Positions 7,914 through 64,000 of a DNA stretch of 64,000 nucleotides are shown piece after piece (position 1 is the stretch's first letter; every line of letters begins with the position of its first letter). The DNA comes from Patescibacteria group bacterium (GTDB lineage: Bacteria; Patescibacteriota; Minisyncoccia; Minisyncoccales; Staskawiczbacteraceae), in NCBI GenBank assembly GCA_038065715.1, contig JBBTQL010000004.1, positions 35,693 to 99,692 of the forward strand, read 5' to 3'. Both the position numbers and the translations under genes were made by a program. The notes beneath the pieces were generated by a model. That model was not told the DNA's origin. It ran no database searches and saw nothing but the letters and a program-made list of their open reading frames with translations.

Positions 7914-8748
7914 TTTTATTAAAAATATTATTTTTTATTTCTTTTAAGTCGGCTCCCGTTTTCATTAAAAGCCCGGCAGTTTCAAAAATTTCCTGCGTTG
8001 TTTTTGAATTTCCAAAATTTTCTGTGTAAATTGCCAGTCCTGCCAAAAAGCAGTTGGCAGCCTGTTTTTTTACCCCGTTAGAAAGCCCATCTTTTGAGGG
8101 TTCCTTATTGGATGGGTCGTATGGCCCCGGTTGCTCAAGCTTTCTATCGGGGTTTACAAGATTTAACGCCATCTCTGACAAAGAATAATCTCTTATTATG
8201 TTTATTCTACCAAAGTTTTGGTTTTTTGTCCCGACTTCGTCGAGGATGCTCGATGGCGAAGCCATCGGCACACTTTCACTATCTATATTTAAAATAAGAG
8301 AATCCAGTAAAAACCCATAAGAGTTAAGCTTGCCAGCCAATTCAGTTTTAAAATCTTTTATTCCTAAAGTTATTGTAAGGTCTGGTTTTGTTTCTGAAAA
8401 ATAAAATAAGAGGTTTTCTTTTTTTATATTTCCCCTGTCAATCATTAAATGAATTTTTAATCCTTCTTCATTTTTTTCGTAGTAAACCTGCGAGATTTCA
8501 GCTGTTTTTTGAGGAATTGAAATCACAAAGTTTTTTGGATATGAAATATGGCCTAAGCTAGGCAATAAAAATCGAAATTTTTCTGGAAATTCTTCTATTA
8601 TTAAGTTTACATTTTTATTTAATTCTTTTAAAGTATAAAAAAGAGCCAAAGCAACTGGAATGCTTTCGCCATTTGGGTTATCATTTGGAATAATGCAGAT
8701 ATTTTTTGCTTCAGAAATTAATTGCTTTGCTTCTTGCGGTATTTCCAT
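7906..8748 (-). CDS. DHH/NrnA-like phosphoesterase homolog with degenerate catalytic motif
   Basis: 280 aa; N-terminus ICIIPNDNPNGESIPVALALFYTLKE parallels NrnA HRNPDGDAIGSxLAL but His/Asp replaced; overlaps upstream ATPase gene by 8 nt; contains GC-rich hairpin insert at 8229-8268. Confidence 0.45.
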   Translation of the reverse strand: MEIPQEAKQLISEAKNICIIPNDNPNGESIPVALALFYTLKELNKNVNLIIEEFPEKFRFLLPSLGHISYPKNFVISIPQKTAEISQVYYEKNEEGLKIHLMIDRGNIKKENLLFYFSETKPDLTITLGIKDFKTELAGKLNSYGFLLDSLILNIDSESVPMASPSSILDEVGTKNQNFGRINIIRDYSLSEMALNLVNPDRKLEQPGPYDPSNKEPSKDGLSNGVKKQAANCFLAGLAIYTENFGNSKTTQEIFETAGLLMKTGADLKEIKNNIFNKNE

Positions 8749-21181: not shown

Positions 21182-21787
21182 ATGATAGCATTTTTATCGG
21201 GTAAAATTTTATTAAAAAAGGACAAGTTTATCATTCTTGAAGCAGCTGGCGTTGGCTACAAAGTTTTTTTAAATCAGCAAACCCTATCCCGACTCGATCG
21301 AGGATCCTCGACGACTTCGTCGTCGGGATTAAAATTATCAGAAATAGGGCAGGATGTAAAGCTATTTTGCTTCCAAAATATAAAAGAAGATGCTTCGGAT
21401 TTATATGGGTTTTTAAGTTATGACGAGCTTGATTTTTTTGAGGTGCTAAACGATATTCATGGCGTAGGGCCAAAAGCTGCTTTGGAAATTTCTGTGTTAG
21501 GCCCCTTAGAAAAAATTAAGGACAGAATTTTAGCGCAGGACGAAAAAATATTTGAAGGAATTCCCGGAATTGGTTCAAAAAGGGCGTCGTCAATTATTTT
21601 AGAATTGACCGGAAAAATAATGGCGAAGTCCGCCTTTGCTAAAGCTTCGCCAGACGAAGCAGAAACCGCTTTAACCCAGCTTGGTTTTTCAAAACAGCAA
21701 GCAAAGGATGCCCTGGCTCGCGTGCCTGTTGCTGTTAAAAATTCTGAAGACAGAATAAAATTAGCGCTTAAAAATTTAGGAAAATAA
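21182..21787 (+). CDS. ruvA: Holliday junction branch migration protein RuvA
   Basis: MIAFLSGKILLKKDKFIILEAAGVGYKVF N-terminus, HhH GVGPKAALEI, C-terminal domain III; true start ATG 21182 (ORF-track start 21098 lies in GC-rich non-coding element); in-frame GC hairpin insert 21286-21329. Confidence 0.85.
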   Translation: MIAFLSGKILLKKDKFIILEAAGVGYKVFLNQQTLSRLDRGSSTTSSSGLKLSEIGQDVKLFCFQNIKEDASDLYGFLSYDELDFFEVLNDIHGVGPKAALEISVLGPLEKIKDRILAQDEKIFEGIPGIGSKRASSIILELTGKIMAKSAFAKASPDEAETALTQLGFSKQQAKDALARVPVAVKNSEDRIKLALKNLGK

Positions 21788-22788: not shown

Positions 22789-24039
22789 ATGAGGATAAAA
22801 GAAGCAGTTAAAAAAATATTAGGCAGAAATTTGTTGGGTTTTTATCATTATGGCATGGCTTTTTTGGGAGCTGTGATTTTTGGTTTTCCATCTAAAAATT
22901 TAACTGTTATAGGGGTTACAGGCACCAGCGGTAAATCAACTACTTCTGATTTTATCACAAGAATTTTAGAAGAACCCTTCGACGGGGCCCAGGGCAGGTC
23001 TGGCAATAAGGTGGCTTCAATTTCAACAATAAGATTTAAAATTGCAGAAAAAGAATGGGAAAATAAATATAAAATGACAATGCCCGGCCGTTTTGTTATT
23101 CAAAAGTTTTTAAGGCAGGCAAAAAAAGCAGGATGCAAATTTGTGGTTTTAGAAGTTACTTCGCAAGGCATTGAACAATATCGCCATAAATTTATAAATT
23201 TTGATACAGCTGTTTTTACTAATTTGTCGCCAGAGCATATTGAAAGCCATGGCAGTTTTGAAAATTACAGAAACGCAAAACTAAAACTATTTCGAGCAAC
23301 AAAAAACATCCATATTATAAATACTGATGACGCAAATTCAAAATATTTTTGGAATATTCCGGCAAAACAAAAAATTGGATTTTCAGCCAAAGATGCGCAA
23401 AACGCTAATTTAAAATTAAATTTAATTGGAGACTTTAATATTTTAAACGCCTTAGCGGCAATTTCTGCGGCAAAGGCATATGGCATTGATTTTAGCATTT
23501 GTAAAAGGGCGCTGGAAAAGGCCAAAGGAATTTCTGGCAGAATGGAAGTGATTCAAAAAGAGCCATTCAAAGTTATTGTTGACTATGCTCATACTCCAGA
23601 ACAACTCGAAAGTGTCTATAAGGCACTTTCTCAAAACCCAAAACCTCAAACTCCAAACCCCAAACTTATTTGTGTGCTTGGAAGTTGCGGCGGGGGAAGG
23701 GATAAATGGAAAAGGACTGTTTTAGGAGAAATTGCAAATAAATATTGCGACAAAATATTTATAACCAATGAAGATCCATATGATGAAAACCCCAACCAGA
23801 TTTTATCTGAAATAAAATCTGGAATTATCAATTCTCAATTTCCAATTTCCAATTTATATGAAATTTTAGACCGTAAAGAGGCAATTAAAACTGCAATAAA
23901 ATTAGCAAAATCAGATGATATTGTTATAATCACTGGCAAGGGTTCAGAATCCTGGATGTGCATAGCAAACGGTAAAAAAATCCCCTGGGACGACAGGCAA
24001 ATCGCTAAAGATGCGTTGGGGCTCCAAACCTTGACATAG
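22789..24039 (+). CDS. Mur ligase family protein (MurE/MurF-like UDP-N-acetylmuramoyl peptide ligase)
   Basis: P-loop GVTGTSGKSTT; Mur ligase middle and C-terminal domains; in-frame inserts at 22977-22994 (GC hairpin) and 23828-23855 (heptamer repeat). Confidence 0.75.
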   Translation: MRIKEAVKKILGRNLLGFYHYGMAFLGAVIFGFPSKNLTVIGVTGTSGKSTTSDFITRILEEPFDGAQGRSGNKVASISTIRFKIAEKEWENKYKMTMPGRFVIQKFLRQAKKAGCKFVVLEVTSQGIEQYRHKFINFDTAVFTNLSPEHIESHGSFENYRNAKLKLFRATKNIHIINTDDANSKYFWNIPAKQKIGFSAKDAQNANLKLNLIGDFNILNALAAISAAKAYGIDFSICKRALEKAKGISGRMEVIQKEPFKVIVDYAHTPEQLESVYKALSQNPKPQTPNPKLICVLGSCGGGRDKWKRTVLGEIANKYCDKIFITNEDPYDENPNQILSEIKSGIINSQFPISNLYEILDRKEAIKTAIKLAKSDDIVIITGKGSESWMCIANGKKIPWDDRQIAKDALGLQTLT

Positions 24040-24218
24040 ATGCTTTAATATGATATGATTAATAATATAGCTCTTTTTTATTGTTACTTGCGAAATTGGC
24101 AGTTATAGCCAAAAGCTACTGAATTATATCGGTATCTTCTGGCTATGACTGCTATGTCGGTACGTCAAGCAGAAACCAGCCTGTCATAATTGGCGGGCAA
24201 AACAGAAAGGAGATTGTC

Positions 24219-24878
24219 ATGGCTGTGCAAGTCATTGGCGATCTATATGTGGAGTTGGATGGGAAGTTGGCGGAGATTAAGCGGCAAATGAGGCAGCAGG
24301 GAGGCTATCCGTTTGACCCGGAGAAATTAAACAAGTTTCTCCAACTAGCTGTCGAGGGCAGGTTCAACGACAACCGGTGCTGGTGCGAGAAGGAAGGAGT
24401 GATCTACTTTGAGGTCACCTCTGACGGCACGACTGGACCCCAATGGATTGAGCGTCTGGAGAAGAAGGGTATCCAGCTCTCCAAGTGGGCCAAGGACGTC
24501 CTGCTGTCTCCGGACTTCAAGCCGACCAACGGCGTGACCACCGAGATCGCTGTCCTCAAGGGCGCGCTTTTTATGGACAATGATCGCATCACGTCTAAGA
24601 TCCGCGCTGAGGCCGACAAGCGCAAGCTCGTCAAGCCCGAAGCCGAACTCGGTTGCCTTATCCGCGACACGTTCACGGACGAGGAAATCGAAGCCATGGG
24701 TCTTGTGTGGATCGTGGCGTTCCACGAGCCCATCAAGGACTCTGACGGCGATCCGACGTTGCTCGGTGCGCGTCGCCTTGGCGATGGCCGTTGGCTGCGC
24801 GCGTGCTGCGGCCTGCCCGACCGCAGGTGGCTTCGCGACCGTGGCTTTGCCTTCGCCGTCTCGCAAGTATCTTCGTAA
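24219..24878 (+). CDS. DGR target protein (variable C-terminus, probable C-type lectin-like fold)
   Basis: 219 aa; ~60% GC in 33% GC genome; AAAGGAG RBS; C-terminal ...GARRLGDGRWLRACCGLPDRRWLRDRGFAFAVSQVSS encoded by VR. Confidence 0.7.
   Translation: MAVQVIGDLYVELDGKLAEIKRQMRQQGGYPFDPEKLNKFLQLAVEGRFNDNRCWCEKEGVIYFEVTSDGTTGPQWIERLEKKGIQLSKWAKDVLLSPDFKPTNGVTTEIAVLKGALFMDNDRITSKIRAEADKRKLVKPEAELGCLIRDTFTDEEIEAMGLVWIVAFHEPIKDSDGDPTLLGARRLGDGRWLRACCGLPDRRWLRDRGFAFAVSQVSS
24741..24866 (+). other. DGR variable region VR1
   Basis: 126 nt aligning 1:1 with TR1 25208-25333; 22 of 23 mismatches fall at TR adenines. Confidence 0.8.
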
Positions 24879-25207: not shown

Positions 25208-25333
25208 TCTGACGGCGATCCGAACTTGCTCAGTGCGAATCGCAATGACGATGGCCATTGGCTGAACGCGTACTACGACAAGCCCGACAACAGGTGGAAT
25301 CGCGACAATGGCTTTGCCTTCGCCGTCTCGCAA
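25208..25333 (+). other. DGR template repeat TR1 (non-coding)
   Basis: Adenine-rich (AAC-rich) near-copy of VR1; followed by diverged IMH-like end; preceded by conserved CAAGGGGCAGTGGCATAGATGG element shared with DGR-2. Confidence 0.8.
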
Positions 25334-25339
25334 CTCTCT

Positions 25340-25699
25340 TCATTTCTCTCCTTGCTTAGGAGAGTTTTGTTTAATAATTTGTCCCGACCAACCACCGAGC
25401 ATTTTGCCAATTTCATCTAGTTTCAATGATAGAGCAATATATTTTTTGTTATCCAATGATTTTGTTTCCCAAAGAATCATTAAAAATATTTTTAACGTAT
25501 CGACCTTTCTAATTGCTAAACGTACATAGGACAATTTTTCTGATTGCCCAAGAAAACTTGCAGTCACTATTGCCTCTATTGCTTCAACAAAAAGTTTATC
25601 AATTTTTTCACCAAGAGAATATTTATGTATTTTTGGTATAATTAAATAGTGTTGGTACCAAAAAAGATAAGCTTCTTTCAACTTTTGCAAAACAGGCAA
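25340..25699 (-). CDS. Avd-like accessory variability determinant (four-helix-bundle family)
   Basis: ~120 aa from TTG 25699; paralog of 63274-63642; C-terminal ...KLDEIGKMLGGW motif; antisense to TR and RT. Confidence 0.55.
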   Translation of the reverse strand: MPVLQKLKEAYLFWYQHYLIIPKIHKYSLGEKIDKLFVEAIEAIVTASFLGQSEKLSYVRLAIRKVDTLKIFLMILWETKSLDNKKYIALSLKLDEIGKMLGGWSGQIIKQNSPKQGEK

Positions 25700-25739
25700 C
25701 AGTCTGGGGGGGGGGATTAAAAGCTGAGTTATTTTGATT

Positions 25740-26726
25740 ATGAAAATTACTTTGCAACATAAATACGAAGACATCATAAGCGTTGAGAATATTTTGGAAG
25801 CATGGCAAGAGTTTCTTCTCGGCAAAAGAAACAAGCCCGATGTTCAAGAATTTTCTCTCTGTCTGATGAATAATGTTTTTAATTTGCACAACGACTTATC
25901 CAATCATACCTACAAACACGGAGGCTATCAACAATTTAAAATTAACGACCCAAAGCCAAGAACAATCCACAAAGCCAGCGTAAAAGACAGATTATTGCAC
26001 CACGCAGTATATCGTATATTATACCCGTTTTTTGATAAAAAGTTTATTGCAGACTCTTTCTCTTGCAGAAACAACAAAGGCACTCATAAAGCATTAAACA
26101 AATTCAGGGAGTTCAGCTATATTGTTTCCAAAAACAACACAAACACCTGCTGGATTTTAAAATGCGACATAAAAAAGTTTTTTGCCAGCGTTGATCAGCA
26201 GATACTAATTAAAATTTTAGAAAAATATATTTCAGAAAAAGATATTATCAACTTTCTAAAAGAAATAATTTTTGGTTTTAAACCCAATGGTTTGCCTCTC
26301 GGTAATTTGACTTCCCAGTTGTTCGCAAATGTTTATCTGAATGAATTTGACCAGTTTGTAAAACACAAATTGAAAGTAAAATACTATATTAGGTATGCCG
26401 ATGACTTCGTAATTTTATCAGAGAACAAAAATTATTTAAAAAACATAATTCCAGAGCTAAAATATTATTTAAAAAACAATTTAAAACTGGAAATTCATCC
26501 AAATAAAATTTTTATTAAAACATTGAATTCTGGCGTTGATTTTTTAGGCTGGATTAATTTTACAGATCATAGAGTTTTAAGGACAAAAACTAAAAACAGA
26601 ATATTAAAGAGAATAAAAAATAATTCAAGTATTGAAACATTAAATTCTTATTCGGGTTTGTTAAAACATGGAAATATGAACAAAATGATTAAGAAATTAT
26701 TTAAGGAAACGGAGATTGCTTTTTAA
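25740..26726 (+). CDS. DGR reverse transcriptase
   Basis: RT motifs incl. YADD and DGR-diagnostic LGNLTSQLFANVYL (IGxxxSQ); ~328 aa. Confidence 0.85.
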   Translation: MKITLQHKYEDIISVENILEAWQEFLLGKRNKPDVQEFSLCLMNNVFNLHNDLSNHTYKHGGYQQFKINDPKPRTIHKASVKDRLLHHAVYRILYPFFDKKFIADSFSCRNNKGTHKALNKFREFSYIVSKNNTNTCWILKCDIKKFFASVDQQILIKILEKYISEKDIINFLKEIIFGFKPNGLPLGNLTSQLFANVYLNEFDQFVKHKLKVKYYIRYADDFVILSENKNYLKNIIPELKYYLKNNLKLEIHPNKIFIKTLNSGVDFLGWINFTDHRVLRTKTKNRILKRIKNNSSIETLNSYSGLLKHGNMNKMIKKLFKETEIAF

Positions 26727-34527: not shown

Positions 34528-34664
34528 AATTTAAAAATTTGACACAGAGTTGAGGGGGGGGTATTATAAGATAATATCAAAAATATCAAATTTTTAGTTT
34601 TTAATTTCTAATTTTTTAAATAATTTTTCAATTTTAGAATTTTAAAATTAAAATTTAATAGCAT

Positions 34665-36359
34665 ATGAGAATAAAATATTTTTTAATAACAGCTGTTTTA
34701 GCAACATCAATTTTAGGTTCTGGCGGTTTTGTGAAAGCGCAAACCACAGACAATTCAGCGTTAATTGCCCAACTTCAAGCGCAAATTCAGGCAATTCTGC
34801 AACAAATAGCGCAACTGCAAGCTCAGCAAGATACAAACGCGGTCCAAAACTCTGCGTCAGAAAATGCTAATTCAGACAGTTCAAAAGCAAACTGGTGCTA
34901 TAATTTCAAACAAAACTTGTGGATTGGTAAAAATGGCAGGCCTGTTGAGGCTTTACAGATTGCTTTGTCTAAAGAAGGTTTGTTTGACGCCAGTTTAATT
35001 AAGAATCCATGGAGATTTGGCCCCTCTACCTTATTGGCAGTAATCAAGTTTCAGAATAAATATAGCATAAAACCAACAGGATATGTGGGCTTCGCCACAA
35101 ACAAAAAACTAAACGAACTCTACGGCTGCAAAACCACCGAGTCATCAGTTACAGTTACTTCGCCCAACGGCGGAGAGGAGTGGGTGCGAGGGTCAACTCA
35201 TAATGTTACGTGGACGTCTCAAAATGTGGAAAGAGATGTTTATCTTACAATTAAAAACTTTGACACAAACGTCATAAAGAGCATTTCTTTAGCGCCTGTT
35301 TCGCCGGTCAGCGATTCTGCTTCTTTTAATATTCCGTCTGATTTGGCCGTGGGAAACAAATATAAGGTTAGAGTGGGAAATAGCGATGTTTCAGATTACA
35401 GCGACAATTATTTTAGCATTCTTGATACAACAACTTCTTCAAATGCGTCTATTACCGTCACTTCGCCCAACGGCGGAGAAACATGGCAAGTCGGCGGAAC
35501 GCATAATATCACATGGTTCAGTCAGGGTGCAAATGCTATAAATTATAATGTTCAAATCGGAATTATTGATAATCGCTATAGTACGGAATCAGGAGATAGA
35601 TCCGAAAAAATTATAGTAAATTCTATTCCTAATACTGGCAGTTATTCTTGGACGGTGCCTCAATCTATTGGAACAATGAATCTGAATGATACTATCCAAC
35701 CGGTTTATAAAATTGTTGTACATTCTCGAAGTGATGCGGTTACAGGAGTGGCTCTTGGAGACTCGAGCGATAATCCTTTCAGTATTGTGGCGCCGACGGT
35801 TGCCTGTACGTCATTTACCTATTCAGCTTGGGGGGCTTGCCAGTCAAACAATACCCAAACAAGAACAGTTGTATCATCCTCGCCAACTGGATGCGCAGGA
35901 GGCAGCCCAATATTATCGCAATCTTGCGGAGTAGTAAAGACTGTATTCAGCAATAGCCAAATTTATCTTGACGCCAATAGCAAAGTAGCGCCCTTGTCTT
36001 GCACTAATTATAAGTGTAACGGCTCTTTTGGCTATTGCTCTGCTTCTTGCGGAGGAGGATATTATCCAGATAATTTAACAGCCCAGAAATTGTGCCAGAA
36101 AAAAGGTTACGATGCAGCTTCAAGTTTCACCATAAAAAATGGTTTTTATGCATCTTGCAGCGATAACTATATGTGGAAATGGAATGGGGTTAGCGCTGAA
36201 TATGTTTGGTCTTGCGTTAAAAATAGCGGTATAGACACTGTCACTTGCTCAAAAACTGTTGGGACTACGGCAAGCATTGATTCTCAAGATCAATTAGCGT
36301 CTATTTCTAGCGCAATACAAAGAATAGCTCAACAAATTCAAGCATTATTTGAAAGGTAA
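34665..36359 (+). CDS. secreted protein: Q-rich coiled coil, peptidoglycan-binding-like domain, Ser/Thr-rich SPNGGE-W repeats, Cys-rich C-terminus
   Basis: Signal peptide; PG_binding-like ...ALQIALSKEGLF...GPSTLLAVIKFQ; two TVTSPNGGE(E/T)W..G..HN.TW repeats. Confidence 0.55.
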   Translation: MRIKYFLITAVLATSILGSGGFVKAQTTDNSALIAQLQAQIQAILQQIAQLQAQQDTNAVQNSASENANSDSSKANWCYNFKQNLWIGKNGRPVEALQIALSKEGLFDASLIKNPWRFGPSTLLAVIKFQNKYSIKPTGYVGFATNKKLNELYGCKTTESSVTVTSPNGGEEWVRGSTHNVTWTSQNVERDVYLTIKNFDTNVIKSISLAPVSPVSDSASFNIPSDLAVGNKYKVRVGNSDVSDYSDNYFSILDTTTSSNASITVTSPNGGETWQVGGTHNITWFSQGANAINYNVQIGIIDNRYSTESGDRSEKIIVNSIPNTGSYSWTVPQSIGTMNLNDTIQPVYKIVVHSRSDAVTGVALGDSSDNPFSIVAPTVACTSFTYSAWGACQSNNTQTRTVVSSSPTGCAGGSPILSQSCGVVKTVFSNSQIYLDANSKVAPLSCTNYKCNGSFGYCSASCGGGYYPDNLTAQKLCQKKGYDAASSFTIKNGFYASCSDNYMWKWNGVSAEYVWSCVKNSGIDTVTCSKTVGTTASIDSQDQLASISSAIQRIAQQIQALFER

Positions 36360-38045: not shown

Positions 38046-38403
38046 ATTATTTTAGTGGAAGCGCCGGGGTCGAACCCGGGTCCAGAAATTTTTTAAAAAT
38101 AAATCTACAAATTTATCTTGCTTTGTTGTTTGGATATTAAATAAGAAGCAAGAAAAATGTTTAATATCCTAATTCTCGTAAATCTCGACAGTTCCCCGAG
38201 AAATAAAACTGCCTATCCTGAAAATATAACACCCTCGGTCCATTTATCAGGAGTCAATGGCGAGGATGCAGCATTAAGCTAAAGCTAGTGCTGGTTGCCT
38301 ATTAAATAAATTAGCAATTATGTTTTTTCTATAAGTTTAACCAGGTTATAGAAAACTGGATTTGCATATTTTTAATGAAACATCTGTCAAAACTTACGCT
38401 CCC
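38046..38403 (-). ncRNA. ssrA: tmRNA (SsrA)
   Basis: Minus-strand 5' GGGAGCG pairs with 3' CGCUUCC-A; tRNA-like T arm GGTTCGACCCC; internal tag frame GCT AAT TTA TTT AAT AGG CAA CCA GCA CTA GCT TTA GCT TAA (ANLFNRQPALALA*); starts 2 nt after smpB stop. Confidence 0.75.
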
Positions 38404-39830: not shown

Positions 39831-41482
39831 TAAAAGAAGAAATAAAAAAAATAGTGGAAAACTCAATTAAAAACCTGCAAAAACAGGGCGCATTTTTAAA
39901 ATTAAAAATGCCAGAAATTTTAATTGAGCGGCCTAAAGAAAAAATACGCGGTGACTATTCAACCAACATTGCCTTTGTAATTGGAAAAGATGTTTTGAAA
40001 AATCCATTTGAAACGGCATTGCTTTTGAAAACAGAAATTGTCTCGCTTTGCGAGATCTCGCGCAGCGAGAAAAAACAAAAATCTGTAATAGAAAAAGTTG
40101 AGGTAGTGGGAGGGTTTATTAATTTTTTTGTTGCTGACGATTATTTTAAAAATCAGCTGCAAATTATTTTAAAACAAAAAAACAAATTTGGAGATTTAAA
40201 ACTTGGTAAAAGTCAAAAAGTAAACATAGAATTTATTTCTGCAAATCCAACAGGGCCGTTAACTTTAGGAAACGGCAGAGGAGGATTTTGTGGCGATGTT
40301 TTGGCTAATGTTTTAGAAAAAGCAGGATATAAAGTTGAAAGAGAATATTATATTAACAATACCGGAGCTCAAATTAAAAAACTTGGGCATTCTGTAATTG
40401 GAGATGCAGAAGCTGTTTACAAAGGAAAATATATTATTGATTTAAGAAACAAAGTTAAGGGAGATGACCCCGAGAAAGTTGGAGAAAAATCGGCAAAAAT
40501 TATTTTAGAAAAAATGATAAAGCCGTCTGTAAAAAAAATGGGAATTAAATTTGACACATGGTTTTCAGAAAAAACTCTCTATAAAAATAAAGAAGTAGAT
40601 AAAACAATACAAGAATTGGCTAAAAAAGGGTTCACCTATGAAAGCGAAGACGCTGTGTGGTTTAAATCTAAAGAATTGGGCGATGACAAAGACAGGGTTT
40701 TGGTGAGAGCCGACGGAATTAAAACATATTTTGCTTCAGATATTGCTTATTTTAAAAATAAATTTAAAAGAGGGTTTGGTAAACTTATTATGTTTTTGGG
40801 AGCCGACCACTATGGATATGTTCCGAGGCTAAAAGCTGCCTCGCTTGCTTTTGGTTTTAAAAAAGACAGTATTGATGCTATTGTTATGCAGTTGGTGCGG
40901 CTTTATGAAAAAGGCAAAGAAGTAAGAATGGCAAAAAGGACTGGTATTTATGTAACAATAGATGAGTTAATTGGCGAGGTTAGTTTGGATGTTGCCAGAT
41001 TTTTCTTTTTAATGATAAGCCCTAATACCCACATGAATTTTAATTTGGATTTAGCAAAAGAAAAATCAGAGAAAAATCCGGTTTTTAAAGTGCAATATGC
41101 GCATGCCCGAATTTGCTCAATTTTCCGAAAATTTGGAAATTTCAAATTTTCCCGATTTCATCGAGGATCCTCAATGGCAAAGCCATCGGGACAAATTTCA
41201 AATTTAAAATTATTAAATGAGCCGAGCGAGTTAGGGTTAATTAGAGAATTAATTAAACTTCCAGAAATTATTGAAGAGATAGCTAAAGATTATCAAGTTC
41301 AAAGACTACCGCAATACGCAATGGATTTAACTGATGCATTCCATAGATTTTATGAAAACTGTAAAGTCCTGAGCGAAGTCGAAGGATTGCGTGATGCCCG
41401 CTTGTCTCTTGTTATGGCAACAAAAATTGTTTTAAAAAATACATTAGACTTAATGGGAATATCTGCTCCTGAAAAAATGTGA
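39827..41482 (+). CDS. argS: arginine--tRNA ligase
   Basis: SANPTGPLTLGNGRGG class I motif; C-terminal DALK-type anticodon-binding domain; in-frame AAATTT-type repeat plus GC hairpin insert 41108-41190. Confidence 0.9.
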   Translation: MIKEEIKKIVENSIKNLQKQGAFLKLKMPEILIERPKEKIRGDYSTNIAFVIGKDVLKNPFETALLLKTEIVSLCEISRSEKKQKSVIEKVEVVGGFINFFVADDYFKNQLQIILKQKNKFGDLKLGKSQKVNIEFISANPTGPLTLGNGRGGFCGDVLANVLEKAGYKVEREYYINNTGAQIKKLGHSVIGDAEAVYKGKYIIDLRNKVKGDDPEKVGEKSAKIILEKMIKPSVKKMGIKFDTWFSEKTLYKNKEVDKTIQELAKKGFTYESEDAVWFKSKELGDDKDRVLVRADGIKTYFASDIAYFKNKFKRGFGKLIMFLGADHYGYVPRLKAASLAFGFKKDSIDAIVMQLVRLYEKGKEVRMAKRTGIYVTIDELIGEVSLDVARFFFLMISPNTHMNFNLDLAKEKSEKNPVFKVQYAHARICSIFRKFGNFKFSRFHRGSSMAKPSGQISNLKLLNEPSELGLIRELIKLPEIIEEIAKDYQVQRLPQYAMDLTDAFHRFYENCKVLSEVEGLRDARLSLVMATKIVLKNTLDLMGISAPEKM

Positions 41483-57698: not shown

Positions 57699-57953
57699 AT
57701 GCTGGTTTTGTCCCGCAAGAAGAACGAGAGCATTGTCATCAACGACGATATCACGATTGTCGTGATAGAAATCCGCGGCGACAAGGTTCGCCTCGGCATT
57801 GATGCGCCAAAAGAGGTGCCTGTCCACCGGCGCGAAGTGTTTGACGCGATACGTCGCGATGATGCTTCAGCAGCTAGTACGGGGATTAAAACCTCCGAGA
57901 CCCCCGATAATCTGGAGGATCCCGCCGAGGAAAGCCCTCAAGACCCAGGTTAA
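57699..57953 (+). CDS. csrA: carbon storage regulator CsrA (GC-atypical, extended acidic tail)
   Basis: MLVLSRKKNESIVINDDITIVVIEIRGDKVRLGIDAPKEVPVHRREVF matches CsrA; ~55% GC; 30-aa Pro/Asp/Glu tail. Confidence 0.8.
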   Translation: MLVLSRKKNESIVINDDITIVVIEIRGDKVRLGIDAPKEVPVHRREVFDAIRRDDASAASTGIKTSETPDNLEDPAEESPQDPG

Positions 57954-59467: not shown

Positions 59468-62014
59468 ATGAATATGGCAAAATATAATCCTCAAAAAATT
59501 GAGAAGAAATGGCAAGAGGCTTGGTATAAATCAAGCATTTTTAAAGCTAAAAACGGGTCTAAAAATAAGAAATTTTACCTTTTAGTGGAGTTTCCTTATC
59601 CTTCGGGAGACGGGCTTCATGTCGGCCATTGCCGAAGCTATACTGCCTTAGATATTATTGCCAGAAAAAAAAGAATGCAGGGATTTAATGTTTTATTCCC
59701 AATGGGCTGGGACGCTTTTGGATTGCCAACTGAAAATTATGCCATAAAAAAGGGAGTACACCCGTCTGTTGTGACAAAAAAGAATACAGATAACTTTAGG
59801 CGGCAGATGAAAAGTTTGGGGCTTTCTTTTGACTGGAGCCGAGAAATAAATACCACAGACCCAAAATATTATAAATGGACGCAGTGGATTTTTTTGCAGT
59901 TATTTAAAAATAACTTGGCTTATAAAGATAAAATTGCAATCAACTGGTGCCCTAAAGATAAAATTGGATTGGCAAATGAAGAAGTGATAAATGGCAAATG
60001 CGAAAGATGCGGCGCAAAAGTTGAAAAAAGAGATAAAGAGCAATGGATGATAAAAATTACAAAATATGCCGACAGATTAATTGAAGATTTAAATTTAGTT
60101 GATTATTTAGAAAAAATAAAAATACAGCAGAAAGATTGGATAGGCGAGTCACATGGAGCGTTGATAAAATTTTCGTTAGAAGGAAGCGAAGAATTCATAG
60201 AAGTTTTTACAACCAGAATAGACACAATATTTTCTGGCACGTTTTTAATTTTATCTCCAGGACACAATTTTATAGATAAATATAAAAATAAAATTGAAAA
60301 CATTGATGAAGTTTTAAAATATAGAGAAACCGCAAAAAATACTTCTGATATAGATAGAACTAATCAAGATAAAGATATTACAGGAGTGGAATTAAAAGGA
60401 ATTACAGTAAAAAATCCTGCCACAAATGAAGAAATGCCAGTTTGGACAGCTGATTTTGTTTTAGAGCAATACGGAACAGGAGTCGTTTTTGCTGATGCCC
60501 ATGATAAAAGAGATTTTAAAATGGCAAAAAAATATGGGATACCTTTGCGAACTTCAATAAAACCAGAAAATGAACTATCGGCGCAAAAAGCAAAAAATTT
60601 GGAAGAATGTTTTGAGGGCGAAGGCGCTCTTTATAATTCTATGCATTTTGACGGCTTAACTTCTTCTGAAGCCCGACCTAAAATAATTTCTTGGTTAAGG
60701 GAAAAAGGATATGCGGAAAACAAAATAAGCTATAAGCTTCGAGATTGGGTTTTTTCGCGCCAGCATTATTGGGGCGAGCCAATACCAATGATTTTTTGCG
60801 TAAAATGCGGTTGGCAGGCTGTTTTAGAAAAAAATCTGCCCGTTGAATTGCCTAAGGTAAAAAAATATCAGCCAACAGATACAGGCGAATCTCCTCTTTC
60901 TGCTATTGAAAAATGGGTAAATGTAAAATGTCCAAAATGCAAAGGACCGGCAAAAAGAGAAACAGACACAATGCCTAATTGGGCAGGTTCAAACTGGTAT
61001 TACTTGGCATATACTATGCCAAAAATTTCAAATTTCAAATTTCAAATTTCAAATTCTGCGAAAGAATTTTCGCAGTGGATGCCAGTTGACTGGTATAATG
61101 GCGGAATGGAGCACACAACTTTGCATTTATTGTATTCAAGATTTATTTTTAAATTTTTATGGGATATTGGAGCTGTTCCAAAAATAATTGGGGCAGAACC
61201 ATATAAAAAAAGAACTTCGCATGGAATGATTTTAGGCGAAGGGGGAATTAAAATGTCAAAGTCAAAGGGAAATGTAATAAATCCAGATTCAGTTGTGAAA
61301 CAATATGGAGCCGACACCTTAAGAGTTTACGAAATGTTTATCGGGCCTTTTGAGCAAATGATTCCTTGGGATATAAAGGGGGTTGTTGGTTCGCGCAGGT
61401 TTTTAGAAAAAATTTACAACTTAGTTTTGAAGAAGGCAATTCCGGCAAAAATCCCGACGGTCTCGCCGTCGAGGACCCGCGACGAAGTCGGGGCAGAAGA
61501 AAATTTTAAAAAACTTTTGCATAAAACAATAAAAAAGGTTGGTGACGATATTGAGGCAATGAAATTTAACACAGCAGTGAGCTCTTTAATGGAATTTGTA
61601 AATGCATGGAGCATTGCTGAAAATAGTTTAGATAAACCAGCCTCCGATAAAGGCTACGGCTTGGCGAAGAAAGATTTGCAAGAATTTTTAAAGATTTTGT
61701 CGCCTTTTGCCCCGCATTTGTCAGAAGAGCTTTGGCAAAGAGCTGGATTTAAAGGTTTGTGCTGCGCTCAAAAATGGCCTAAGTATGACGAAAAATTAAT
61801 TGAAGAAAAAAACATATTGCTTATTGTGCAAATTAACGGTAAAGTTAGAGATAAAATAGAAGTTAACGCAGGCATTACTCAAAAACAAGCTGAAGAAATA
61901 GTTTTAAAATTAGAAAAAATTAAAAACCGTATAACTAATATTAAAGAAGTGGAAAAAGTTGTTTTTGTGCCAGGTAAGTTAATAAATTTTGTGACTATTG
62001 ACAAGGATAAGTAA
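59468..62014 (+). CDS. leuS: leucine--tRNA ligase
   Basis: HVGHCRSY (HIGH), KMSKSKGN; 848 aa; in-frame (AAATTTC)4 array 61023-61057 and GC hairpin insert 61453-61494. Confidence 0.9.
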   Translation: MNMAKYNPQKIEKKWQEAWYKSSIFKAKNGSKNKKFYLLVEFPYPSGDGLHVGHCRSYTALDIIARKKRMQGFNVLFPMGWDAFGLPTENYAIKKGVHPSVVTKKNTDNFRRQMKSLGLSFDWSREINTTDPKYYKWTQWIFLQLFKNNLAYKDKIAINWCPKDKIGLANEEVINGKCERCGAKVEKRDKEQWMIKITKYADRLIEDLNLVDYLEKIKIQQKDWIGESHGALIKFSLEGSEEFIEVFTTRIDTIFSGTFLILSPGHNFIDKYKNKIENIDEVLKYRETAKNTSDIDRTNQDKDITGVELKGITVKNPATNEEMPVWTADFVLEQYGTGVVFADAHDKRDFKMAKKYGIPLRTSIKPENELSAQKAKNLEECFEGEGALYNSMHFDGLTSSEARPKIISWLREKGYAENKISYKLRDWVFSRQHYWGEPIPMIFCVKCGWQAVLEKNLPVELPKVKKYQPTDTGESPLSAIEKWVNVKCPKCKGPAKRETDTMPNWAGSNWYYLAYTMPKISNFKFQISNSAKEFSQWMPVDWYNGGMEHTTLHLLYSRFIFKFLWDIGAVPKIIGAEPYKKRTSHGMILGEGGIKMSKSKGNVINPDSVVKQYGADTLRVYEMFIGPFEQMIPWDIKGVVGSRRFLEKIYNLVLKKAIPAKIPTVSPSRTRDEVGAEENFKKLLHKTIKKVGDDIEAMKFNTAVSSLMEFVNAWSIAENSLDKPASDKGYGLAKKDLQEFLKILSPFAPHLSEELWQRAGFKGLCCAQKWPKYDEKLIEEKNILLIVQINGKVRDKIEVNAGITQKQAEEIVLKLEKIKNRITNIKEVEKVVFVPGKLINFVTIDKDK

Positions 62015-62201
62015 ATATGCTATGATTAATAATACAGCTCTTTTTAAGTGAAAATACTTGCAAAAACAGCGGTTATAGCCAAAAGCGACCGAAGGTCGTC
62101 CTGAGCAGAGCCGAAGGACAACAAATCGGTATTTTCTGGCTATGACTGCTATGGTAGTAGTCAAGCGAAATGGTGAAACCCTAAAGAAAGGAAAAAGCAC
62201 C

Positions 62202-62822
62202 ATGTCGTACGACAAGCAGACAGCCGAGTTCATCGCCACTGTGGTGCAGAACATCCCCAAAATGTCAGGCGATGTTATGCAGGGTTGGATTGGGAATCCA
62301 AAAGCGCTACAGAAGCTCCTCTTGGGTCTATGCCCTTCTGTCAATGAGCCCAAGGAAGTCTCGTTGCTCCGCAAGCTCGCCAGCGTTCAGGTGGAGGGCG
62401 TTGCAAGATTCGTCGTTGACGACGATACCCTGCAGGCGGCCAACATCGGCTGGACTGGCGACAACTTCAAAAAGTTTTTCGCCAAGAAGGTTGAGGAGGA
62501 TGTTCCCGCCTGCGCTATCGCTGTTCACCGGCTGGAACGCGCGTCTTCGGATGCGCCCATTCTCACCGAACTCGGTGACCGCGCCGAAATCAGCCTCGCG
62601 CACCTGTTCGAGCTGATCAAAAAGCAGTCCAAGGGCGAAACTGGCCAGTTGTTGGTTAATGGTTATGCGAATGTCGCATATGTCCGTGGAACCGATGGCA
62701 ACCTCTGGGCTGTGCTTGCGGCCTGGCGCTCTTACTGCGGTTGCTGGGGTGTCGAGGCTGACTCGGTTGAGGATCCGGACGGGTGGCGCGGTAGCCGCCG
62801 GATTCTCTCCCGCGATTCTTGA
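62202..62822 (+). CDS. DGR target protein 2 (variable C-terminus)
   Basis: ~206 aa from ATG 62202 after AAAGGAAAAAG RBS (the 62142 start lies in conserved leader); ~58% GC; C-terminal ...LWAVLAAWRSYCGCWGVEADSVEDPDGWRGSRRILSRDS in VR. Confidence 0.7.
   Translation: MSYDKQTAEFIATVVQNIPKMSGDVMQGWIGNPKALQKLLLGLCPSVNEPKEVSLLRKLASVQVEGVARFVVDDDTLQAANIGWTGDNFKKFFAKKVEEDVPACAIAVHRLERASSDAPILTELGDRAEISLAHLFELIKKQSKGETGQLLVNGYANVAYVRGTDGNLWAVLAAWRSYCGCWGVEADSVEDPDGWRGSRRILSRDS
62704..62813 (+). other. DGR variable region VR2
   Basis: 110 nt aligning with TR2; 21 mismatches, all at TR adenines. Confidence 0.8.
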
Positions 62823-63164: not shown

Positions 63165-63274
63165 TCTGGGCTGTGAATGCGAACTGGAACTCTAACTACG
63201 GTTACTGGAATGTCGAGGCTAACTCGGTTGAGAATCCGAACAGGTGGAACGATAGCAACCAGATTCTCTCCCGC
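63165..63274 (+). other. DGR template repeat TR2 (non-coding)
   Basis: A-rich near-copy of VR2; upstream CAAAGGGCAGTGGCATTGATGG element conserved with DGR-1. Confidence 0.8.
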
Positions 63275-63642
63275 TACTGTTTTCTTTCTTCCGCTTTTAT
63301 CGCGGAAGTTTTGCTTATTATTCCTTTTTTCCAGCCACCGATTATCTTACCAATGCCTTCTATCTCAGCGCCAAGCGAGATATATTGTTTATTAGAAACG
63401 AGTTTTGTTTCCCATAAAAGCTGAAAGAAAAAACGCAACGAATCAATTTTGTCCGATGTCGCTTCAAGCAAAACAAGTTTTTTATTTATTGGCGTATACG
63501 TAGCTTTTCTTAATAACTCAAGAAGATCTAAAAATAAAATATCTACTTTAGTCCCGATTCCGAACCGCGCGATTCGTTCAATATTGCGATGCACTTCCAT
63601 CCACTGTTTATATATCAATTTGGATTTTTGCAAAACTGGCAA
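63274..63642 (-). CDS. Avd-like accessory variability determinant
   Basis: 122 aa; TTG start; paralog of 25340-25699; ...EIEGIGKIIGGW motif. Confidence 0.6.
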   Translation of the reverse strand: MPVLQKSKLIYKQWMEVHRNIERIARFGIGTKVDILFLDLLELLRKATYTPINKKLVLLEATSDKIDSLRFFFQLLWETKLVSNKQYISLGAEIEGIGKIIGGWKKGIISKTSAIKAEERKQ

Positions 63643-63685
63643 CAGTCTGGGGGGGATTAGAAGAATAACTATTTATATTTTGATT

Positions 63686-64000
63686 ATGAAAATTGTTTTG
63701 AAACATAAATATGAATATTTAATTAGCGTTAATAATTTATTGGAAGCGTGGACAGAATTTATCAAGGGGAAGCGCAACAAAAGCGATGTTCAGATTTTTT
63801 CATTTCATTTAATGGATAATATTTTACAACTTCATTGTGATTTAAAAAATGGCACATATAAGCATGGAGGCTATCAACAATTTAAAATCAACGACCCAAA
63901 ACCAAGGATAATTCACAAAGCCAGCGTAAAAGACAGATTATTGCACCACGCAGTATATCGTATATTATACCCGTTTTTTGATAAAAAGTTCATTGCAGAC
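63686..64000 (+). CDS. DGR reverse transcriptase, N-terminal part (3' end beyond window)
   Basis: MKIVLKHKYEYLISVNNLLEAW...KINDPKPRIIHKASVKDRLLHHAVYRILYPFFDKKFIAD nearly identical to RT at 25740. Confidence 0.8.
   Translation, partial: MKIVLKHKYEYLISVNNLLEAWTEFIKGKRNKSDVQIFSFHLMDNILQLHCDLKNGTYKHGGYQQFKINDPKPRIIHKASVKDRLLHHAVYRILYPFFDKKFIAD

Follow-up and report, generated by a model that had tools for sequence, protein, structure and literature searches.

A length-variable G tract between the divergent avd and RT genes of Patescibacteria DGRs, a candidate slippage switch of diversification

The DGR cassettes of Patescibacteria were found to carry a simple-sequence repeat in the short gap between the antisense avd gene and the RT gene, present as G10 and G7 in the two cassettes (DGR-1 and DGR-2) of the window, i.e. 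the whole 64,000-nt stretch of DNA analysed here, and present at the same position in 139 of 149 related cassettes (93%). An initial annotation of the window had described the two tracts of differing length, and this observation was confirmed and generalises strongly across relatives. The feature is absent from the literature searched, in which no link between DGRs and a homopolymer or other simple repeat was found; an earlier mention is possible, and Paul et al. 2017, reportedly the main paper on Patescibacteria DGRs, lay outside the search.

Two DGR cassettes and their G tracts

Both cassettes are genuine DGRs, because their TR/VR mismatches are adenine-biased, their avd products match bAvd and the RT matches RVT_1 (E 1.1e-24). 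The TR/VR mismatches all fall at TR adenines in DGR-2, and all except one (at a C) do so in DGR-1. The DGR-2 Avd matched PF22296 bAvd with an E of 2.9e-09 and 37.8 bits, slightly below the curated cut-off of 40, and the RTs of DGR-1 and DGR-2 share 80% identity. The order in the cassettes is promoter, target gene with VR, TR, terminator-like hairpin, antisense avd, tract and RT, with the following features.

DGR-1
24031-24059, plus strand: near-consensus promoter TTGACA-17-TATGAT upstream of the target gene
24741-24874, plus strand: VR, at the 3′ end of target ORF 24219-24878
25208-25341, plus strand: TR, its 3′ end overlapping the avd stop codon
25346-25364, plus strand: hairpin then T run, terminator-like, directly after TR and overlapping the 3′ end of antisense avd
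25340-25699, minus strand: avd, 119 aa, TTG start, N-terminus MPVLQK, PF22296 bAvd E 1.4e-11
25706-25715, plus strand: G10 simple-sequence repeat, equal to a C10 run on the avd-sense strand
25740-26726, plus strand: RT, 328 aa

DGR-2
61998-62026: counterpart of the target-gene promoter TTGACA-17-TATGAT
62704-62820, plus strand: VR, at the 3′ end of target ORF 62142-62822
63165-63281, plus strand: TR
63288-63308: counterpart of the hairpin then T run, directly after TR and overlapping the 3′ end of antisense avd
63274-63642, minus strand: avd, 122 aa, TTG start, N-terminus MPVLQK
63649-63655, plus strand: G7 repeat
63686-64000, plus strand: 5′ part of RT, which continues past the window (full protein P0005, 326 aa)

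Both tracts thus lie where the initial annotation had placed them, between the antisense avd TTG start and the RT start. The TTG (25699 in DGR-1, 63642 in DGR-2) is 6 nt from the tract in each cassette, and the spacing from the tract to the RT ATG is 24 nt in DGR-1 (ATG 25740) and 30 nt in DGR-2 (ATG 63686). The embedding in conserved sequence that had been reported was found as well, in the form of a 30-nt block, TTTTGCAAAACnGGCAACAGTCTGGGGGGG, which spans the first avd codons and the tract and differs at one position between the two cassettes, although the Avd proteins of DGR-1 and DGR-2 are only 36% identical.

The G+C content of the window is 34.5%, only four G or C runs of at least 7 nt occur in it, and the expectation of a G10 is about 0.001 per 64 kb (an estimate from base composition), so the G10 and G7 tracts are not due to chance. 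All four runs are located in 5′ regulatory regions, namely the two DGR tracts, a G8 at 34554 and a C7 at 57675. The G8 (34554-34561) ends the 17-nt spacer of a promoter at 34541-34567, TTGACA (34541)-17-TATTAT (34562), and abuts its -10 element, about 100 nt upstream of a 564-aa protein (34665-36359) with PG_binding_1 and Kre9/KNH Ig-like domains; this is a porA-like geometry, unlike that of the DGR tracts, and the G8 was unchanged in all 5 assemblies fetched. The C7 (57675-57681) lies in the leader of an 84-aa ORF (57699-57953, beginning MLVLSRKKNESIV), which we take from its sequence to be a putative csrA, directly upstream of the ribosome-binding site AGAAAGGAGAG, and this leader shares a 'C run then AGA' arrangement with the avd upstream region.

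Two further features of the window were recorded. A G+C-rich, part-palindromic element of about 45 nt, TCCCGAC..CGAGGAT.CTCGA..GTCGGGA, occurs in four copies in both orientations within A+T-rich surroundings (8224-8300, 21287-21330, 41147-41221 and 61450-61498), and the Rfam scan of the window returned only a tmRNA gene (38053-38403, minus strand, RF00023, 112 bits), with no family at the tract.

With respect to the known architecture, the prototype is the DGR of Bordetella phage BPP-1 (PMC6182149, PMC5758913). The window cassettes resemble it in having RT, Avd, an adenine-specific TR/VR pair and a VR at the 3′ end of the target gene, but BPP-1 has avd, TR and brt in one direction and no simple repeat, whereas the window order is target, TR, antisense avd, repeat and RT. 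The hairpin after TR could act as terminator of the TR transcript, and it might also correspond to the structured RNA that follows TR in the Bordetella phage DGR. A survey of DGR architectures (PMC5758913) makes no mention of a homopolymer.

Distribution of the repeat in related and viral DGRs

RT homologues at 70-80% identity number in the thousands in Patescibacteria, and the family is very large. Related loci were fetched from species-representative genomes (80) and from metagenomes (80), and 149 of them with at least 60 nt of flank, whose RTs are 54-80% identical, were scored as cassettes. The avd gene was antisense and directly upstream of RT in all 147 loci with an Avd match, of the 149 with enough flank. 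The comparison with homologous DGRs bore out the tract as a conserved feature: the 139 cassettes with a simple repeat at the tract position comprise 136 automatic scores of a repeat between avd and RT and three assigned by eye (L012, L146 and L155).

Among these repeats, 125 were G runs, of 6 nt in 3 loci, 7 nt in 4, 8 nt in 18, 9 nt in 38, 10 nt in 34, 11 nt in 22, 12 nt in 3, 13 nt in 1 and 14 nt in 2, i.e. most tracts were G8-G11 with a family mode of 9-10. About 12 were dinucleotide tracts of 11-32 nt (5-16 units), (GT)n in seven loci and (GA)n in four to six, and these were spread over about 7 separate RT clusters with nearest neighbours that carry G runs; the replacement by (GT)n or (GA)n at the same place points to repetitiveness, not to a specific sequence or length, as the conserved property. 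Without exception, the G-rich strand of the 125 G runs and of the (GT)n and (GA)n tracts coincided with the RT-sense strand. Five of the remaining loci had only G3-G4 remnants, and one of these, L145 (G4), also has a stop codon inside RT.

The repeat follows avd more closely than RT. The tract was 3-23 nt (mode 6-9) away from the codon that aligns with Avd residue 1, and its distance to the inferred RT start ranged from -6 (overlap) to 108 nt in the spacing survey; in L026 and L146 the repeat lies beside avd though RT is 133 and about 230 nt off. The near-constant avd spacing against the variable RT spacing ties the repeat to the avd 5′ end, not to RT, and avd rather than RT is the more likely target of a switch. 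A role of the G run as a Shine-Dalgarno sequence on the RT mRNA was rejected, because its spacing from the RT start varies too widely.

An outgroup was obtained by a scan of viral contigs, which yielded 52 DGR loci, 51 of which were examined (one lacked upstream flank). Within 400 nt upstream of RT, a G or C run of at least 6 nt or a dinucleotide repeat was found in none of the 51 (0/51). Seven of these loci have the same divergent avd/RT layout and no tract, with RTs 44-58% identical; in the closest of them avd and RT begin at start codons that adjoin or are separated by a few nucleotides, and the Avd proteins of the seven begin with an ATG and 5-16 residues ahead of the conserved Avd N-terminal motif (a hydrophobic residue, P, I/V, F/L, Q/K, K). 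The lack of a tract in viral DGRs indicates that the repeat is not part of the core DGR mechanism. It is an addition specific to the DGR clade of cellular Patescibacteria, which fits a regulatory add-on.

In some comparisons the avd side and the RT side of a cassette differed in history, with the break at or near the tract (L197/L191, L008/L009 and DGR-1/DGR-2). For L197 versus L191, the RT side of one locus (96-100% over 700 nt) is joined to an avd side resembling another, and for L008/L009 the RT sides are identical while the avd sides are about 90% identical over 300 nt and diverge about 100 nt past the tract. Such mismatches represent either real module exchange or assembly chimeras.

Length polymorphism between assemblies

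Independent assemblies of one locus were gathered by identical-protein look-ups of the RT, which gave nine sets with the following tract lengths.

P0029: 11, 12, 11, 10, 10, 10, 11 and 10, plus an N gap in one case and a contig end within the tract in another
P0017: 9, 9, 9, 9, 10, 11, 12, 10 and 10 (9 assemblies)
P0020: 9 and 11
P0068: 9, 10, 8, 9, 9, 8 and 8 (7 assemblies)
P0226: 11 in four assemblies and 12 in one
P0182: 10 in six assemblies, including the closed genome CP066687
P0181: 8 in three assemblies
Window DGR-1: G10 in the NCBI assembly and G9 in an independent single-sample assembly from that organism, with 0 mismatches over 1640 nt of flank
Window DGR-2: G7 in the window and in three independent assemblies

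Tract length was polymorphic in 6 of the 9 identical-RT sets; the sets with runs of at least 9 varied in 6 of 7 cases, and none of the sets with only G7 or G8 varied. In the four polymorphic sets that were aligned (P0029 with 7 assemblies, P0017, P0068 and DGR-1), the tract was the sole indel, and 13 A or T runs of 7-8 nt in the same alignments were invariant. Among the related loci, the pairs L008/L103 and L137/L138 differ by one G within identical flanks of 550-600 nt. The (GT)n tracts of L036 and L140 measure 21 and 15 nt (three units) at a flank identity of 95%; this pair was the sole comparison of dinucleotide tracts, with the (GT)n protein P0121 found on one contig only.

Assemblies often break at the tract, with contigs ending there and one scaffold N gap, and the one-nucleotide differences seen between assemblies at G9-G12 could reflect Illumina or assembler error. 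The assembly of the tract is not pure noise, because G10 was identical in the six assemblies of P0182 and the G7, the G8 and the G8 at 34554 were constant. At the level of assemblies, replication slippage appears to alter tract length by single nucleotides. In the 7 assemblies of P0029, with tracts of 10-12, no position upstream of the tract differed, the target-gene 3′ part contained in these loci included, and diversification therefore shows no visible association with tract length in that set.

Candidate mechanisms and meaning of the repeat

Poly-G and poly-C promoter switches are known from porA and opc of Neisseria meningitidis and from the subfamily II tpr genes of Treponema pallidum, where the tract lies in the -35/-10 spacer or beside the transcription start and its length sets promoter strength. 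The DGR tract is similar in being a G/C homopolymer of about 7-14 nt at a gene 5′ end, polymorphic among close relatives, with slippage as the presumed mutational mechanism, but it differs in having no spanning -35/-10 pair and in lying 3-23 nt from a start codon. In Haemophilus influenzae hifA/hifB, a TA repeat sets the distance between the -10 and -35 elements in each of two overlapping divergent promoters; the DGR repeat likewise lies between divergent genes and could affect both, but unlike the TA repeat it tracks avd alone where RT is distant (L026 and L146). The Helicobacter pylori tlpB leader carries a variable G repeat that is targeted by the small RNA RepG and tunes expression post-transcriptionally, and the DGR tract resembles it as a variable homopolymer near a translation start; however, the run on the avd mRNA is C, not G, and the RepG mechanism needs a C/U-rich partner RNA.

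The initial annotation had proposed a slipped-strand phase-variation switch in divergent promoters, and this held in part. The hallmarks of a contingency locus are there, i.e. conservation in 139/149 cassettes, replacement by (GT)n or (GA)n at the same spot and length differences within identical flanks, but the picture of a tract inside a promoter was not upheld, since sigma-70-like -35/-10 pairs of at least 8/12 over the tract were found in just 6% of 119 loci. Consensus promoters are used elsewhere in the organism, such as the TTGACA-17-TATGAT before both target genes. A promoter-spacer switch was also rejected by scoring all tract-spanning -35/-10 pairs at natural and altered tract lengths, where the natural length was not the optimum.

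A positional promoter scan on both strands gave a single peak, a minus-strand TTGATA-17-TATGAT inside RT (25903-25931 in DGR-1), with an equivalent in 46 of 121 loci at 150-190 nt from the tract. This could be an avd promoter, whose transcript would carry a long leader antisense to the start of RT, and could equally be a by-product of conserved Tyr-Gln codons. Shine-Dalgarno-like sequences precede only 5 of 38 long ORFs in the window, and in many ORFs the ATG is immediately preceded by A/T-rich or -10-like sequence, a pattern suggestive of initiation on leaderless transcripts or independently of Shine-Dalgarno pairing in this organism.

Three other accounts of the tract were weighed. One places a frame switch inside avd, with a start upstream of the tract, antisense to the first RT codons, so that the tract encodes a proline run and Avd is made only if the tract length brings the upstream start in frame; it has in its favour that 42 of 106 loci (about 40%) lack any ATG, GTG or TTG at most 3 codons away from the conserved Avd N-terminus, codon 1 then being an ordinary leucine codon (TTA, CTT, CTA, CTG or CTC, as in L019, L024, L026, L027 and L255), that the tract-less relatives have an ATG and 5-16 extra N-terminal residues before the same motif, and that at every homopolymer locus tested one or more frames are open from a start further upstream. 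In CP066687, codon 1 is TTA and the called avd passes in frame through C10 from an upstream start, read as TTG from the sequence, and the tract is constant in the 6 assemblies. A coding tract was nevertheless not supported for the family as a whole, with every measure at chance level: an upstream start was in frame in 15 of the 42 loci without a nearby start and in 23 of 64 with one, the other two frames being no lower, tract length modulo 3 was uniform, and an open upstream frame was equally common at antisense-RT control positions (86-99%). Several loci also have stop codons directly upstream of the tract in the avd frame, and TTG accounts for 56% of the leucine codons found at Avd codon 1 versus 18% in the Avd body (p = 7e-15), marking codon 1 as the start in most loci, both window copies included. 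We therefore regard the frame switch as quite improbable as a general account, while a frameshift-type switch in part of the family is possible, given the roughly 40% of start-less loci and the CP066687 avd reading through its tract.

Somewhat better placed, though still unlikely, is a composition-dependent element, in which the tract would provide a G-free, C-rich avd leader, a non-B DNA structure or a protein site, and length variation would be a by-product. It is favoured by an avd-sense strand that is always C, CA or CU without G, by the fixed position relative to the avd start, by the tight distribution of lengths (8-11), by the C7 directly upstream of the putative csrA ribosome-binding site in the same genome and by the 5 of 38 long ORFs with Shine-Dalgarno-like sequences, in view of which leaders may act by composition. 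It would, however, have to assign one shared role to three repeat types, 9-11 versus 11-32 nt long; RNA structure around the tract was not significant (fold z-scores -0.7 to +0.4), the tract is dispensable in relatives that share the gene layout, and the strand bias could be inherited, if the dinucleotide repeats arose from a G run. That the tract is functionless, a neutral mutational or recombinational scar whose length differences are sequencing or assembly artefacts, seems very improbable: the many contigs that end at it, the scaffold N gap and the switch of partner sequence at or just past it in L197 and L008/L009 agree with such a scar, but a run of 9-11 G at about 35% G+C should decay and yet persists in 93% of cassettes, it reappears in the form of other repeat types, its G10 is identical in 6 assemblies of one locus, and it is the only indel-polymorphic site in the four aligned sets.

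The best available explanation, which on the sequence evidence we hold at about even confidence, is a slippage switch on the diversification machinery. The G tract would be a hypermutable simple-sequence repeat in the short divergent gap between avd and RT of cellular Patescibacteria DGRs, read on the avd-sense strand as a C run located 3-23 nt, mostly 6-9 nt, ahead of the codon at which the conserved Avd N-terminus begins, and length changes by slippage would make it a contingency switch, on/off or graded, of Avd production and possibly of RT too. DGR-1, with G10 or, in another sample, G9, would be in the mutable range, and DGR-2, with its constant G7, would be short and more stable. The step from tract length to expression is inferred; as the classic geometries were not found, we favour a route through the leader and translation-initiation region of avd, or one through divergent promoters that would be tightly packed and off the sigma-70 consensus. 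Counted against the slippage switch are the lack of a tract-spanning promoter, the lack of covariation with spacers (no compensation between tract length and adjacent spacers was seen across related loci), the chance-level frame and the strand-fixed G, a constant RT-sense G even in dinucleotide tracts being not predicted by a pure mutability model. In the Bordetella phage system, cDNA synthesis depends on Avd (PMC6182149), and switching of Avd would control the adenine-directed mutagenesis of the target gene. The fuller claim, that a conserved slippage-prone repeat serves as a heritable stochastic on/off switch for targeted hypermutation, via Avd, in more than 90% of the clade, is put forward more tentatively, at somewhat less than even confidence.

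The tract accounts for the frequent assembly breaks in these cassettes. Uncultivated Patescibacteria carry many DGRs. A conserved hypermutable repeat beside avd is a concrete candidate regulator that can be checked in existing data: tract and VR are less than 1 kb apart, at about 830-970 nt, so long reads or read pairs can link tract length to target variants. If that link holds, the cassettes would combine two levels of bet-hedging, a random switch and then a targeted mutator. A mutable switch would thereby control a mutator, and this, if true, would account for alternating diversification and stasis in natural populations.
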